Positions 1 to 11,953 of a DNA stretch of 11,953 bases are shown one piece after another. The DNA lies in IMG/VR virus record IMGVR_UViG_2645727563_000006, positions 1-11,953 of that record. One strand, 5' to 3'. The position numbers and the translations under genes were made by a program. The stretch comes from a virus. Lineage: Duplodnaviria; Heunggongvirae; Uroviricota; Caudoviricetes. The notes beneath the pieces are model-generated. The model was not told the origin of the DNA. It saw only the letters and a list, made by a program, of their open reading frames with translations, and made no database searches. The number at the start of each line of letters is the position of its first letter. Position 1 is the stretch's first letter.

Positions 1-1122
1 CCCCGCCGCTAAAATGTTACGAGCGCCGTTTACATCGGCGTTCGCTGTATATCCACATACCTGGCATCTGAATTTACTTTGTGACAGGCGATTTTCTTTC
101 GCGGTATGACCACAGCACGCGCAACGCTGGCTTGTGTACGCTGGCGGCACTGCCAGTACCTGACCGCCATGCCAGAGCTGCTTATACTCAAGCTGGCGGC
201 GCATTTCATACCAGCCCTGATCCAGTATCGAACGGTTTAAACCTGATTTTGCCCGGACATTGCGACCCGGCTGACTTATCGTACCCGCCGCTGACTTTGA
301 CATGTGTTTAACCTTCAAATCCTCAATGACAATCATTGCGTGGTTTTTGCTGATGATCGTTGTGACTTTATGAAGGTAGTCTCTGCGGATATTTGCGATA
401 CGGGAGTGCAGTTGCTGTATTTTGCGTTTCTGCTTCTGCCAGTTGTTGCTGAATCTGACCTTGCGGCTTAACTGGCGCTGAAGTCTCGCCAGCTTTTTCT
501 GGTTTTTCTGGAAACTGTTTACAGGCTCAAAGACTGTGCCATCTGACAGCGTGGCGAGTTTAGCCACGCCAGCATCCAGTCCGACCATTGATACTGAAGG
601 GTGAACAGGAGTGGATACCTCTCTTTCTGTCTGAATACTGATGTACCACTTACCGCAGGACTGGCTGACAGTGACATTTTTCACAACACCCGTGACCTGA
701 CGGCTATTCCGGTAGCGCATCCAGCCAAGTTTCGGCAGAAAAATACGGCTGTTTTCCTGATCGAGCTTAACGCCCTGCGGGTAGCGGAATGCATCATTCT
801 GTCCCCGCTTTTTGAATCGGGGAAAAGCAGCCCGATTCTGGAAGAAGTTTTTGTAAGCCCGCTCAAGGTCTTTCAGTGACTGTTGCAATGGCTGTGAGGG
901 AGAATCTTTAAGCCATTCGGTTTCAGTGTCTTTTTTCCACTCAACCAACCAGGAAGCCATTTTCGTGTAAGGGATGTATTTTTTACCGGCCTCATGATTC
1001 TCATTCTGAAGCGCCAGAGCACGATTGAAAACGAAACGACATGCGCCTGCGAAGCGCCTCATTTCACGCTCCTGTTGACCATCTGGTCTTAATCGGAATT
1101 TGAATGACACCTGTTGTTTCAT
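1..1122 (-). CDS. tnpB: IS200/IS605-family TnpB (OrfB) RNA-guided-endonuclease-like protein; 3' end runs off the window
   Basis: Open minus-strand frame from ATG at 1122-1120 to position 1 (374 codons; absent from the ORF track because it is edge-truncated). Translation begins [20 protein letters not shown] and contains RuvC-I-like GLDAGV, RuvC-II-like IVIEDL, a CxxC...CxxC zinc finger (CACCGH...CQVCGY) and ADVNGARNI, the arrangement typical of TnpB. No obvious Shine-Dalgarno precedes the ATG. Confidence 0.85.
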
Positions 1123-1169
1123 GTCACTATTTTAAGCAAAAATAGCCGGGAGGAAAACTGTGCCTTATA

Positions 1170-1193
1170 TCCCCACTATGAGGAGCGTGGGGA
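1170..1193 (-). repeat. Subterminal imperfect palindrome (TCCCCAC / 10-nt loop / GTGGGGA), candidate IS left-end hairpin
   Basis: Direct reading: TCCCCAC at 1170-1176 and GTGGGGA at 1187-1193 are exact reverse complements; the position upstream of tnpB fits the ssDNA hairpins of IS200/IS605 ends. Confidence 0.5.
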
Positions 1194-1221
1194 GCGGCAC
1201 ATTGGATAAGGCGTAACAGGG

Positions 1222-5534: not shown

Positions 5535-6023
5535 CTAAAACGGAATATCGTCGTCAAAGTCCATTGGAGGTTCGTTATTGGCGTTGCTCTGAGGTTTACC
5601 GCCACCACTGTATTGCTGGTGGTTTTGAGGTTGGTTTGATTGCCCCCAGCCATTTGAGGACTGTGAATCGTCACGGCGAGCGCCGATCATTTGCATGGTG
5701 CCGCCCTGGCTGACGATAATTTCCGTCGTGTAACGTTCTACACCGACGTCATCTGTCCACTTACGGGTTTTAAGTTTCCCTTCGATGTAGACCTGAGAAC
5801 CTTTTCGTAAATACTCACTCGCAATTTCAGCAAGTTTTCCGAACAAAACGACTTTATGCCATTCTGTCTGCTCTTTCTGTTGGCCCGTTTGCTTGTCGCG
5901 CCATGATTCATTCGTTGCGATGCTGAGTCTTCCGACAGCGCCGCCATTTGGTATATACCTGATCTCCGGGTCTTGCCCCAGGGTACCAATCAGGATGACT
6001 TTGTTTACACCGCGTTGTGCCAC
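5535..6023 (-). CDS. ssb: Single-stranded DNA-binding protein
   Basis: Translation [23 protein letters not shown]... has an OB-fold SSB N-terminus, a Gly/Gln/Asn-rich linker and the canonical acidic C-terminal tail [11 protein letters not shown] start at 6023 with AGGT upstream. Confidence 0.95.
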
Positions 6024-6042
6024 TTATCTTACCTAATAAAAT

Positions 6043-6059
6043 AAATTAATTAGAGCAAT
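6043..6059 (-). promoter_or_regulatory. P1 C1-repressor-operator-like 17-mer (ATTGCTCTAATTAATTT, 16/17 to remembered consensus ATTGCTCTAATAAATTT) in the ssb-lyz divergent intergenic region
   Basis: Read directly on the minus strand; lies about 20 bp upstream of the ssb start codon. The consensus is recalled from P1 literature, not looked up. Confidence 0.5.
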
Positions 6060-6083
6060 AATGTATATCTTTGAAACGTAGCT

Positions 6084-6102
6084 AACAAGTGATTTGCATT
6101 AT
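6084..6102 (+). promoter_or_regulatory. Candidate late-type promoter element upstream of lyz: AACAAGTGA box plus CATTAT -10-like hexamer
   Basis: AACAAGTGA at 6084-6092 and CATTAT at 6097-6102, about 90 nt upstream of the lyz ATG; shares its 9-mer with the prt upstream region. Confidence 0.3.
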
Positions 6103-6192
6103 CCTGTGCCTTCTAAAGGGATCGAGTCAGTCGGTATTGGCTGTGAATGGGTGTTTGTCCTGGAGCGTAAAAAATTCGCTTATGAGGTCTTT

Positions 6193-6750
6193 ATGAAGGG
6201 AAAAACAGCCGCAGGAGGCGGTGCAATTTGCGCTATCGCGGTGATGATTACCATCGTGATGGGTAATGGCAATGTGCGAACCAACCAGGCTGGGCTTGAG
6301 CTGATTGGTAACGCTGAAGGTTGCCGACGTGATCCATACATGTGCCCGGCAGGGGTATGGACTGACGGGATCGGTAATACACACGGGGTAACGCCGGGTG
6401 TGCGAAAAACAGACCAGCAAATCGCCGCTGATTGGGAAAAGAATATCCTGATCGCTGAACGCTGTATTAATCAGCACTTCCGGGGCAAAGACATGCCCGA
6501 TAATGCCTTCAGTGCAATGACAAGCGCGGCATTCAATATGGGATGCAATAGCTTACGGACCTACTACAGCAAAGCGCGAGGCATGCGAGTAGAAACGTCC
6601 ATCCACAAGTGGGCGCAGAAAGGGGAATGGGTGAATATGTGTAACCATCTCCCTGATTTCGTGAACAGTAACGGCGTCCCCCTGCCCGGGTTAAAGATTC
6701 GCCGTGAAGAAGAACGCCAGCTTTGCCTGACGGGGCTTGTCAATGAATAA
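6193..6750 (+). CDS. lyz: SAR (signal-arrest-release) endolysin, T4-type lysozyme fold, 185 aa; matches the organisation of P1 Lyz
   Basis: ATG at 6193 preceded by GAGG. N-terminal Gly/Ala-rich weakly hydrophobic segment MKGKTAAGGGAICAIAVMITIVMG (SAR domain) carrying Cys13, then Glu42, Cys44 and Cys51 (NAEGCRRDPYMC) at the positions described for P1 Lyz disulfide-isomerisation control. The ORF-track start at 6094 is an upstream extension. Confidence 0.93.
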   Translation: MKGKTAAGGGAICAIAVMITIVMGNGNVRTNQAGLELIGNAEGCRRDPYMCPAGVWTDGIGNTHGVTPGVRKTDQQIAADWEKNILIAERCINQHFRGKDMPDNAFSAMTSAAFNMGCNSLRTYYSKARGMRVETSIHKWAQKGEWVNMCNHLPDFVNSNGVPLPGLKIRREEERQLCLTGLVNE

Positions 6751-7004: not shown

Positions 7005-7021
7005 ATTGCTCTAATAAATTT
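7005..7021 (+). promoter_or_regulatory. C1-operator-like 17-mer ATTGCTCTAATAAATTT (17/17 to remembered P1 C1 operator consensus), probable Op51-equivalent upstream of c4-icd-ant
   Basis: Exact match to the recalled consensus; paired with an inverted copy immediately downstream. Confidence 0.6.
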
Positions 7022-7037
7022 GATTTATTAGAGCAAA
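7021..7037 (-). promoter_or_regulatory. Second C1-operator-like 17-mer in inverted orientation (TTTGCTCTAATAAATCA, 14/17), forming a near-palindrome with 7005-7021
   Basis: Reverse complement of 7021-7037 read directly; the two sites together form an AT-rich inverted repeat spanning 7005-7037. Confidence 0.5.
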
Positions 7038-7210
7038 TAACCTACCATCGAACACGGCTCTATTGATCTCATCGTCGTTCAGGCTTATAGTTCCACCGTC
7101 GTAGCAAATTCTGCGACCAGGTTTGACAGCCTGAATACGAATGCGGACAACCGCAGATTTCCGATATTGCGGTATTTTTGTGTCCGTAAACCACGTTACG
7201 CCCGAATTAT

Positions 7211-7287
7211 GGTGGGGCGTGATGGGGAGGCTTCGGCCTGCTGGTTTCATTCGTGCCAGTCTGTCAACCCTGTCACGTCCTGCCACC
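7211..7287 (+). ncRNA. c4: c4-like antisense repressor RNA of the immunity-I module (77 nt)
   Basis: 77-nt segment bounded by complementary ends GGTGG (7211-7215) / CCACC (7283-7287) with an internal AGGC-TTCG-GCCT hairpin. It contains CATTCGT (7248-7254) and CTGTCAA (7261-7267), complementary to ACGAATG (7320-7326, abutting the icd RBS) and TTGACAG (7291-7297) downstream, in the order expected for antisense pairing. Length and position match the P1/P7 c4 RNA; exact ends not verifiable here. Confidence 0.5.
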
Positions 7288-7290
7288 TGT

Positions 7291-7329
7291 TTGACAGCGG
7301 GTCGCAGGTTGTTAAACCTACGAATGAGG
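7291..7329 (+). promoter_or_regulatory. Candidate c4 target sites (b'-like TTGACAG and a'-like ACGAATG) in the icd-ant leader, adjoining the icd Shine-Dalgarno
   Basis: Complementarity to the two c4-internal segments read directly; GAGG at 7326-7329 is the icd RBS. Confidence 0.45.
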
Positions 7330-7337
7330 CCGTAACT

Positions 7338-7559
7338 ATGGTTAATGCCAATCCTTGCGCACGCCCTGAATTTATCTGGCGCTTTTACTCCTGCCAGAAA
7401 CGTCACTATCACTTCGTAATTGCACCGACAGAAGATGAGGCCCGCTCTCAGCTTCCTGACGCTCCCTGCATTTTCTCTGCCCGCTTTTCCACTGATTCGC
7501 GCAACTCTCTCAGTTACTGGTGCCTCCCTGTTAACGCTTCTGCTCAGGAGGGACTATGA
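7338..7559 (+). CDS. icd: Icd-like small protein (73 aa), translationally coupled to ant
   Basis: ATG at 7338 with GAGG upstream; stop TGA overlaps the ant ATG (ATGA at 7556-7559). The ORF-track entry 7167-7559 is an N-terminal extension that would overlap the c4 RNA and is probably not translated. Confidence 0.6.
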   Translation: MVNANPCARPEFIWRFYSCQKRHYHFVIAPTEDEARSQLPDAPCIFSARFSTDSRNSLSYWCLPVNASAQEGL

Positions 7560-8647
7560 GAACGTCATTAGTCACCCGTGAAGAAATGATTGAGGCAATT
7601 GAACAGCACACATCCTGTATCAGTACCAGGGATATACCGGGTGTTATTGCCAACTACTTCATGATCACCAAACAACTTTACCGGAGAAAGGACAAGAACG
7701 CGGTTCACCGTATCCTGCTGTCTGATATCCGCGAATACCTGCTCGAACAGGGGCATCTGAATTACGCAACCGTCGCAGCCGAAGCACGCAAGGAGGCACA
7801 CAGAATGAAAGCAACTAACGTTAAATCAGAAAAAATTCATGCACCTTCAGTTCGGGAATCGGAGCTGGTGGTTGTTCAGAATCAGTCTGATGAAATTCCC
7901 GTTCTGGAATGGCTGGGAGTGCGTGTCGTAACGACCGAAACTCTTGCTAGAGGGTATAGTACCGATGAAGCCAATATTCGTAAAAATTTGTCTCGCAACT
8001 CCGATCGCTTTGAAGAAGGCAAGCATTACTATCTCTTAACCGGTTCAAAGTTAAAGGAATTTAAAAGGCTAGTGACTATTAGTCACTTGGTTAGCAAATA
8101 TACAAGTCAGGTAATTCTCTGGACAGAGCGCGGCGCTGCACGCATGTCTAAGATCGTGGACACAAATGAAGCATGGGCATTCTTTGAAAAACTGGAAGAC
8201 AGCTACTTCCGACAAAAAGAACAGCAACCGGTCTCAATTCCCCAGACGCTTCCAGAAGCTCTGCGCCTGGCTGCCGAGTTGGCAGAACAGAAAATGCAAC
8301 TGGAACAACAGCTGGTGGCCGCAGCCCCTAAAGTCGATTTTGCCGACCGGGTATCAGTGGCCAAGGGGATCCTGATTGGGAATTTTGCAAAGGTTGTTGG
8401 ACTTAAGCAAAACGCGCTGTTTGCCTGGTTACGGGAGAACGGCATCCTGATTGCGTCCGGCGGACGTAAAAATGTACCGTTTCAGCAGTACATAAATGCC
8501 GGGTATTTCACGGTGAAAGAAGTGGTGCTGGATGATGAAGATGGATACCAGATACGGTTGACGCCCCAGCTAACGGGGAAAGGCCAGCAGTGGCTGACGC
8601 GTAAACTGCTCGATGCAGGTTTATTAAAGCCTGTAGCGGCTGAGTGA
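7556..8647 (+). CDS. ant: Antirepressor Ant (Ant1, 363 aa) with nested in-frame Ant2 start at 7805 (280 aa)
   Basis: Central region VTTETLARGYSTDEANIRKNLSRNSDRFEEGKHYYLL resembles the antirepressor N-terminal (ORF6N-type) domain and the C-terminal part resembles the KilA-C/Ant C-terminal domain. A strong internal RBS AAGGAGG precedes ATG 7805, consistent with P1 Ant1/Ant2 dual products. Confidence 0.85.
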   Translation: MRTSLVTREEMIEAIEQHTSCISTRDIPGVIANYFMITKQLYRRKDKNAVHRILLSDIREYLLEQGHLNYATVAAEARKEAHRMKATNVKSEKIHAPSVRESELVVVQNQSDEIPVLEWLGVRVVTTETLARGYSTDEANIRKNLSRNSDRFEEGKHYYLLTGSKLKEFKRLVTISHLVSKYTSQVILWTERGAARMSKIVDTNEAWAFFEKLEDSYFRQKEQQPVSIPQTLPEALRLAAELAEQKMQLEQQLVAAAPKVDFADRVSVAKGILIGNFAKVVGLKQNALFAWLRENGILIASGGRKNVPFQQYINAGYFTVKEVVLDDEDGYQIRLTPQLTGKGQQWLTRKLLDAGLLKPVAAE

Positions 8648-11558: not shown

Positions 11559-11953
11559 ATGAACAAGCTATCTATGGGGGTGTTTCGCTGTTCAAGTGTC
11601 AGCGAAATATTGAAATACATTAGGGCAATAACATCTCACCGAGCGCCGATTAAATACGGCGTGGAAAAGGTGGAAGGCAAAAGCTATGACCGACTGCGCC
11701 GTGAGGCGAATCAGAAGGCGATAGATTTGCTTAATTCGCTGGTGGACGGCGCGACACTGACAGATGAACAGCGCCAGATCCTGGCTGGGTACACCGGTGA
11801 AGGCGGCATTGGCGGGTCCGTCTCCGAATATTACACACCAAAGCCGATCGCTGAAGGTGTCTGGGAGATCATGAAGCTCTACGGCGCGGACGTAGGTAAC
11901 ACTCTGGAACCATCGGCGGGAACCGGCGTTTTTAATGAGACAAAACCGGTTGG
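11559..11953 (+). CDS. darB: N-terminal part of an N6-adenine DNA methyltransferase-domain protein, probably a large DarB-like protein; continues beyond the window
   Basis: ATG at 11559 with AAGGA RBS; open to the window end (131 codons). Contains EYYTPKP followed by LEPSAGTGVF, matching the (F/Y)(F/Y)TP plus motif-I (xxPxxGxGxF) arrangement of N6-adenine methyltransferases. Divergent from prt, as remembered for P1 darB. Absent from the ORF track because it is edge-truncated. Confidence 0.6.
   Translation, partial: MNKLSMGVFRCSSVSEILKYIRAITSHRAPIKYGVEKVEGKSYDRLRREANQKAIDLLNSLVDGATLTDEQRQILAGYTGEGGIGGSVSEYYTPKPIAEGVWEIMKLYGADVGNTLEPSAGTGVFNETKPV

Follow-up and report, generated by a model that had tools for sequence, protein, structure and literature searches.

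A C1 operator-like site upstream of ssb in a P1-like phage-plasmid and its identity with the P1 operator Op21/Ossb

Does a 17-bp operator-like sequence between the divergent genes ssb and lyz serve as a binding site for the phage repressor C1, and, if so, does it control ssb, lyz or both? The question arises in the window, the whole 11,953-bp stretch of DNA analysed here, which forms part of a P1-like (Punavirus) phage-plasmid. By megablast it is 97.9–98.4% identical to P1, SJ46 and relatives over the gene span ddrB-hxr-isaA-ssb-lyz-lydD-pro-prt; the element that hosts it is a P1-like plasmid variant and not P1 itself. The 301 bp around the operator are present in 497 of the 5,426 complete E. 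coli genomes, where they are almost always plasmid-borne. The left end of the window (1–1205, approximately 1.2 kb) matches SJ46 and vB_EcoM-813R1, not P1, and carries an IS200/IS605-type insQ/TnpB gene upstream of ddrB. Its reading frame runs past the window edge and hence lies outside the list of open reading frames; in the nearest plasmid this position is annotated as an ‘RNA-guided endonuclease TnpB family protein’.

The published 17-bp asymmetric consensus of the operators bound by the P1 repressor C1 is ATTGCTCTAATAAATTT (PMC8546580). A mismatch-tolerant scan of the window with this consensus returned four matches at ≤3 mismatches (Table 1), against a chance level of 0.03 ± 0.16 matches per window in 200 dinucleotide-preserving shuffles, none of which (0/200) reached four. 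The site upstream of ssb reads ATTGCTCTAATTAATTT on the minus strand (AAATTAATTAGAGCAAT on the plus strand) and departs from the consensus only at position 12, where it has T for A. Because shuffling yields only 0.03 such sites per window, we regard this site as real and not as a product of chance. Between the last base of the operator (6043) and the G of the ssb GTG codon (6023) the measured spacing is 19 nt, and 133 nt separate the opposite operator edge from the lyz ATG (6193). These values agree with the first-pass annotation, which had placed a 16/17 match on the minus strand 20 bp before ssb, at a distance of about 130 bp from lyz. Its description of the match as a third site also holds, the other two being the adjoining pair at 7005–7037, with a weaker fourth at 11613–11629. 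A repeat search found no inverted partner for the operator; it returned only a weak 12-nt pair (83%; 6058–6069/6091–6102) unrelated to the consensus. Since it lacks such a partner, the site is monovalent, as annotated in the P1 and P7 records discussed below.

Table 1. Coordinates of the operator-like sites, promoters, genes and other features of the window.
Feature	Position	Strand	Basis or detail
Operator-like site; C1 operator Ossb (former Op21), monovalent, ATTGCTCTAATTAATTT	6043–6059	−	1 mismatch (16/17 consensus); 100% identity to annotated P1/P7 operator; first 11 bases invariant in distant P1-like phages
Operator-like site	7005–7021	+	perfect match
Operator-like site	7021–7037	−	3 mismatches
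Operator-like site	11613–11629	−	3 mismatches
ssb, 162-aa single-stranded DNA-binding protein, GTG start, MAQRGVNK...	5535–6023	−	Pfam SSB, E=7.8e-40; annotated Ssb in P1, P7, SJ46
ssb ribosome-binding site, TTATTAGGT	6031–6039	−	transferred from AF125376.2
Predicted second sigma-70 promoter P1ssb	6026–6054	−	−35 TCTAAT within operator, −10 TAAGAT; AF234172 prediction
Sigma-70 promoter P2ssb (former Pr21)	6060–6088	−	transferred from AF234172 and AF125376; identical alignment
Lpa-dependent late promoter LPlyz	6087–6105	+	−22 box AAGTGATTT (6087–6095), −10 TATCCT (6100–6105); from AF234172 and P7 annotation
lyz, 185-aa lysozyme	6193–6750	+	Pfam Phage_lysozyme, E=1.2e-22; P1 Lyz annotation
Operator palindrome	7005–7037	both	perfect consensus 17-mer and overlapping inverted 14/17 copy
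c4-a1b1 targets	7085–7137		
C4 RNA	7205–7290		Rfam
icd	7338–7559		
ant, 363-aa antirepressor (ORF6N+ANT/KilAC)	7556–8647		

Comparison with P1 and P7 at the homologous position, which had been proposed as a check, returned the same 17-mer in the same place, annotated as a C1 operator in all three of the independently curated records consulted. The ssb-P1 record (AF125376.2) labels it ‘operator 21 (Op21); binding site for the major P1 repressor protein C1’ and sets the ‘promoter of ssb-P1’ directly upstream of it, the ssb ribosome-binding site downstream and the ‘late promoter sequence of lysA’ in divergent orientation. The P1 genome (AF234172) calls it ‘monovalent C1-controlled operator Ossb; corresponds to former Op21’ and further annotates the sigma-70 promoter P2ssb (former Pr21), the predicted promoters P1ssb and Plyz (the latter also of the sigma-70 type) and the late promoter LPlyz. 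In P7 (AF503408) the entry reads ‘monovalent C1-controlled operator Op(ssb); controls expression of ssb’. The first-pass annotation could not confirm the site as described for P1; such a description does exist, under the names Op21 and Ossb.

An alignment of the window with the two P1 records and P7 contains no difference in the operator, P2ssb or LPlyz. Between positions 6000 and 6200 of the window it has four variable columns; one is a SNP (6109), one a 1-nt indel (near 6169), and the other two, at 6026 and 6034, are substitutions confined to P7. With respect to P1, the rest of the intergenic region differs by the SNP at 6109 and by one extra A in the window at about 6169, and the 17-mer, its strand, its distance to the ssb start, P2ssb/Pr21, the ribosome-binding site and the divergent LPlyz are all shared. 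The P7 operator likewise agrees with the window in 17-mer, strand, distance to the ssb start, P2ssb/Pr21 and divergent LPlyz. We are therefore confident that the site is the identical-sequence ortholog of P1 Op21/Ossb, a single 17-bp C1 site silencing ssb in lysogens.

Op21 received its name from Citron, Velleman & Schuster (1989, J Biol Chem 264:3611), and ssb-P1 from Lehnherr et al. (1999, J Bacteriol 181:6463). A full-text literature search combining ‘Op21’, P1 and ssb returned no paper; the case for C1 binding at Op21 is drawn from GenBank annotation, paper titles and secondary citations. Independent literature counts ssb, together with dmt and kilA, among the ‘C1 repressor-controlled genes’, and RT-qPCR detected induction of ssb after thermal inactivation of C1.100 (PMC4713147). 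The proposal that the repressor controls ssb is thus supported both by the curated P1 and P7 records for the identical sequence and by the induction of ssb on heat-inactivation of C1.

The arrangement of the ssb promoter region suggests how such control would operate. On the ssb strand the order is the P2ssb −35 box TTGTTA (6088–6083), a 17-nt spacer, the −10 box TACATT (6065–6060), the operator (6059–6043), the ribosome-binding site (6039–6031) and the GTG codon (6023), so that no base separates the operator from the −10 box and it abuts a promoter already known from annotation as P2ssb/Pr21. Transcription would be expected to start 6–8 nt past the −10 box, inside the operator, which would then extend from approximately −6 to +11 relative to a start that we infer from this spacing. 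Since the operator adjoins the −10 box and covers the expected start, bound C1 should occlude RNA polymerase; the geometry suggests that a C1 monomer on Ossb would sterically block either the formation of the open complex or promoter clearance, repression in its simplest form. In a lysogen, C1 on Ossb would keep ssb silent with the aid of the co-repressor Lxc, which stabilises C1 binding (PMC8546580). Upon inactivation of C1 by Coi or Ant1/2 (PMC8546580), or by heat in the case of c1ts alleles, ssb would be transcribed as part of the dispersed C1 regulon. The second predicted promoter, P1ssb, is a doubtful candidate for ssb expression: its −10 box ends 3 nt before the GTG codon.

A generic sigma-70/terminator scan of 5950–6250 with a threshold of 9/12 returned neither a promoter nor a terminator. 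P2ssb was missed because its hexamers are weak (4/6 each, 8/12 in total) and fall under this threshold, which is not evidence against the promoter. The weak hexamers also fit a low expression of ssb: Lehnherr et al. reportedly describe ssb-P1 as being under tight control by the P1 immunity proteins, with full repression in lysogens and only weak expression during lytic growth.

Ossb resembles other monovalent operators of P1, such as Oc4 (Op51), OrepL (Op53) and Oc1c/d/e (Op99c-e), in having the 17-bp asymmetric consensus and in being a single site that overlaps or abuts a sigma-70 promoter serving a lytic or immunity function. Their placement differs in detail: OrepL overlaps the −10 box of PkilA and Oc4 the −35 box of P2c4, whereas Ossb lies just downstream of the −10 box, over the start site. 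Bivalent C1 operators such as Oc1ab (Op99a/b) have the same half-site consensus but consist of two overlapping inverted 17-mers, unlike Ossb with its single copy.

The site is also retained far beyond the close relatives of P1. Among 80 IMG/VR loci with close or distant relatives of Ssb-P1, 74 possess, beginning 36 or 38 nt ahead of the start codon, a sequence that matches the operator at ≤3 mismatches, and the remaining six are unrelated ssb contexts. The divergent lyz-ssb arrangement persists in three distant IMG/VR loci (L082, L083 and L085) whose Ssb proteins are 65–69% identical, as well as in Cronobacter phage JK004 (MZ188976.1, 83271–83450), which has approximately 78% DNA identity to L082. 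JK004 carries ATTGCTCTAATAATTAT before ssb, at the same position as Ossb, and encodes a C1 homolog 76% identical to P1 C1. In a five-way alignment of the intergenic regions, the longest invariant run is TTATTGCTCTAAT (13 nt), comprising operator positions 1–11 and two bases on their 5′ side. Invariant columns make up 13 of the 17 operator positions versus 66 of 170 elsewhere (Fisher p=0.003), the intergenic DNA being about 40% invariant. A second block, CAAATCACTTGTTAG, is nearly invariant in distant relatives as well and corresponds to the −35 box of P2ssb together with the LPlyz −22 box on the other strand. Judged from sequence, purifying selection acts on the operator core throughout the wider P1-like group, as far as the Cronobacter phage. 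Operator positions 12–17 (the 3′ third) are not conserved in distant relatives, and the contrast between this variable third and the preserved 11 bases on the 5′ side hints at which operator positions matter for recognition by the C1 family.

Two other explanations would deny the site a role as a C1 operator. One holds that the 17-mer is a chance resemblance in AT-rich DNA or a decayed, non-functional relic, ssb being regulated otherwise; the AT-rich composition of the region, the mismatch within the site and the weak promoter hexamers would all be in keeping with it. We consider this highly improbable, given that shuffled sequences almost never produce a match even at 3 mismatches, that an identical sequence, Op21, was named as an operator on experimental grounds, that the 5′ 11 bases of the site are invariant where the flanks of the relatives have diverged, and that ssb is induced upon C1 inactivation (PMC4713147). 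The other would assign the conserved block mainly to the Lpa-dependent late promoter, or to the binding site of another factor, and could invoke the proximity of CAAATCACTTGTTAG, which belongs to LPlyz, as well as the fact that conservation alone does not name the binding protein. The operator block and CAAATCACTTGTTAG are however separated by about 23 variable bases, 6043–6059 fits the C1 consensus and not the annotated −22 box of the late promoter, and about 20 similar sites are spread over a complete relative, before known C1-regulated genes; we give this explanation next to no credence.

Among complete plasmids that share the local layout, the relative in question, NZ_CP058684.1, is the closest (98% identical). 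It contains 20 operator-like sites versus about 0.5 expected and encodes a ‘phage repressor protein C1’; this number of sites fits the dispersed C1 regulon, for which ‘22 operators’ have been described (PMC8546580). The 12-kb window itself holds no c1 gene, and its cognate C1 is one that we infer from complete relatives. C1 homologs are encoded by all P1-like phages of the collection examined, the distant JK004 included.

Whether Ossb also acts on lyz is a separate matter. LPlyz stands back-to-back with P2ssb, its −22 box overlapping the P2ssb −35 box by 2 bp. The early promoter of ssb and the late promoter of lyz are thereby physically interlocked, and their mutual occlusion is possible. The segment 6082–6096 (CTAACAAGTGATTTG), in which the P2ssb −35 box lies over the LPlyz −22 box, is nearly invariant in very diverged P1-like phages. 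The operator itself is situated about 50–70 bp upstream of the LPlyz start, a distance unsuited to direct occlusion. C1 controls late genes through repression of lpa (PMC8546580), which explains the silence of lyz in a lysogen: lyz is driven by the Lpa-dependent late promoter and is under C1 only indirectly.

A direct effect on both arms could nevertheless be imagined if C1 on Ossb formed a roadblock just downstream of a sigma-70 promoter Plyz, stopping early or lysogenic read-through into lyz-lydD. At the corresponding place AF234172 does annotate a ‘predicted sigma 70 promoter Plyz’, directed toward lyz, with a −35 box TTTACA (6004–6009) and a −10 box TATCTT (6025–6030), which would place the operator at about +7 to +23. 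This promoter is, however, a computational prediction located inside the coding start of ssb, with a 15-nt spacer; it is absent from AF125376.2 and from the P7 annotation, and the generic scan did not return it. Moreover, the conserved Lpa-dependent LPlyz suffices for late lyz expression, and C1 reaches the late genes through lpa. Control of both arms by Ossb thus appears unlikely to us. The suggestion of the first-pass annotation that the repressor might govern a divergent promoter pair is weakly supported: the annotated LPlyz is out of the range of direct occlusion, and the Plyz that would read across the operator is a prediction.

An extended version of the same idea is a temporal switch, in which C1 would directly block ssb and early read-through into lyz, and Lpa-RNA polymerase at LPlyz would occlude P2ssb late in infection. 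The back-to-back arrangement of ssb and lyz is conserved even in distant relatives. We regard the switch as improbable; if true, it would account for the weak lytic expression of ssb-P1 reported for P1, and it would refine P1 biology without adding a new kind of system. Our preferred reading remains that Ossb silences ssb and that lyz responds to C1 by way of lpa.

The two operator-like sites at 7005–7037 belong to a different context. An additional immI-type immunity module occupies 7005–8647, inserted between lydD and pro, where P1, P7 and SJ46 have none. It is made up of a C1 operator, the C4 antisense RNA plus the a1/b1 sequences that it targets, icd and the antirepressor gene ant. The operator at its head is a perfect inverted repeat of 14 bp, organised like the bivalent operators, and aligns with P1 Op51/Oc4; the homologous Op51 of P1 is monovalent. 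With insQ/TnpB nearby in SJ46-like relatives, the palindrome was also considered as an end hairpin of an IS200/IS605 element, and this was rejected, as the insert is a c4-icd-ant immI-type module and the palindrome aligns with Op51. The module layout is common to eleven PLSDB plasmids, and NZ_CP058684.1 carries three C4/icd/ant modules as well as c1. In the Rfam hit for C4, a short stretch reads TTCATTCGTGCC in the window versus TTCACTAACGCC in P1; should this difference fall in the target-recognition part of the RNA, it may confer a different immI specificity. Extra icd-ant homologs, as well as the junction of lysis and head-processing genes as an insertion hot-spot, have been noted earlier (PMC6906374).

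The fourth match, ATTGCCCTAATGTATTT (14/17 to the consensus), falls in the 5′ end of darB, with the prt start about 130 nt farther downstream. P1 has the same sequence (AF234172, 17166–17182), with no C1 operator annotated there, and NZ_CP058684.1 has a 15/17 version, ATTGCACTAATATATTT, at an equal distance from prt. Chance may account for the match in darB; alternatively, it may represent a weak operator that has escaped annotation.

The control of ssb by C1 through Op21/Ossb is already known, and nothing at the site in the window departs from P1. The meaning of the finding is mainly one of annotation: a P1-like plasmid prophage keeps the canonical regulatory link between C1 and ssb, and a real, experimentally defined repressor site was recovered by reading the sequence alone.
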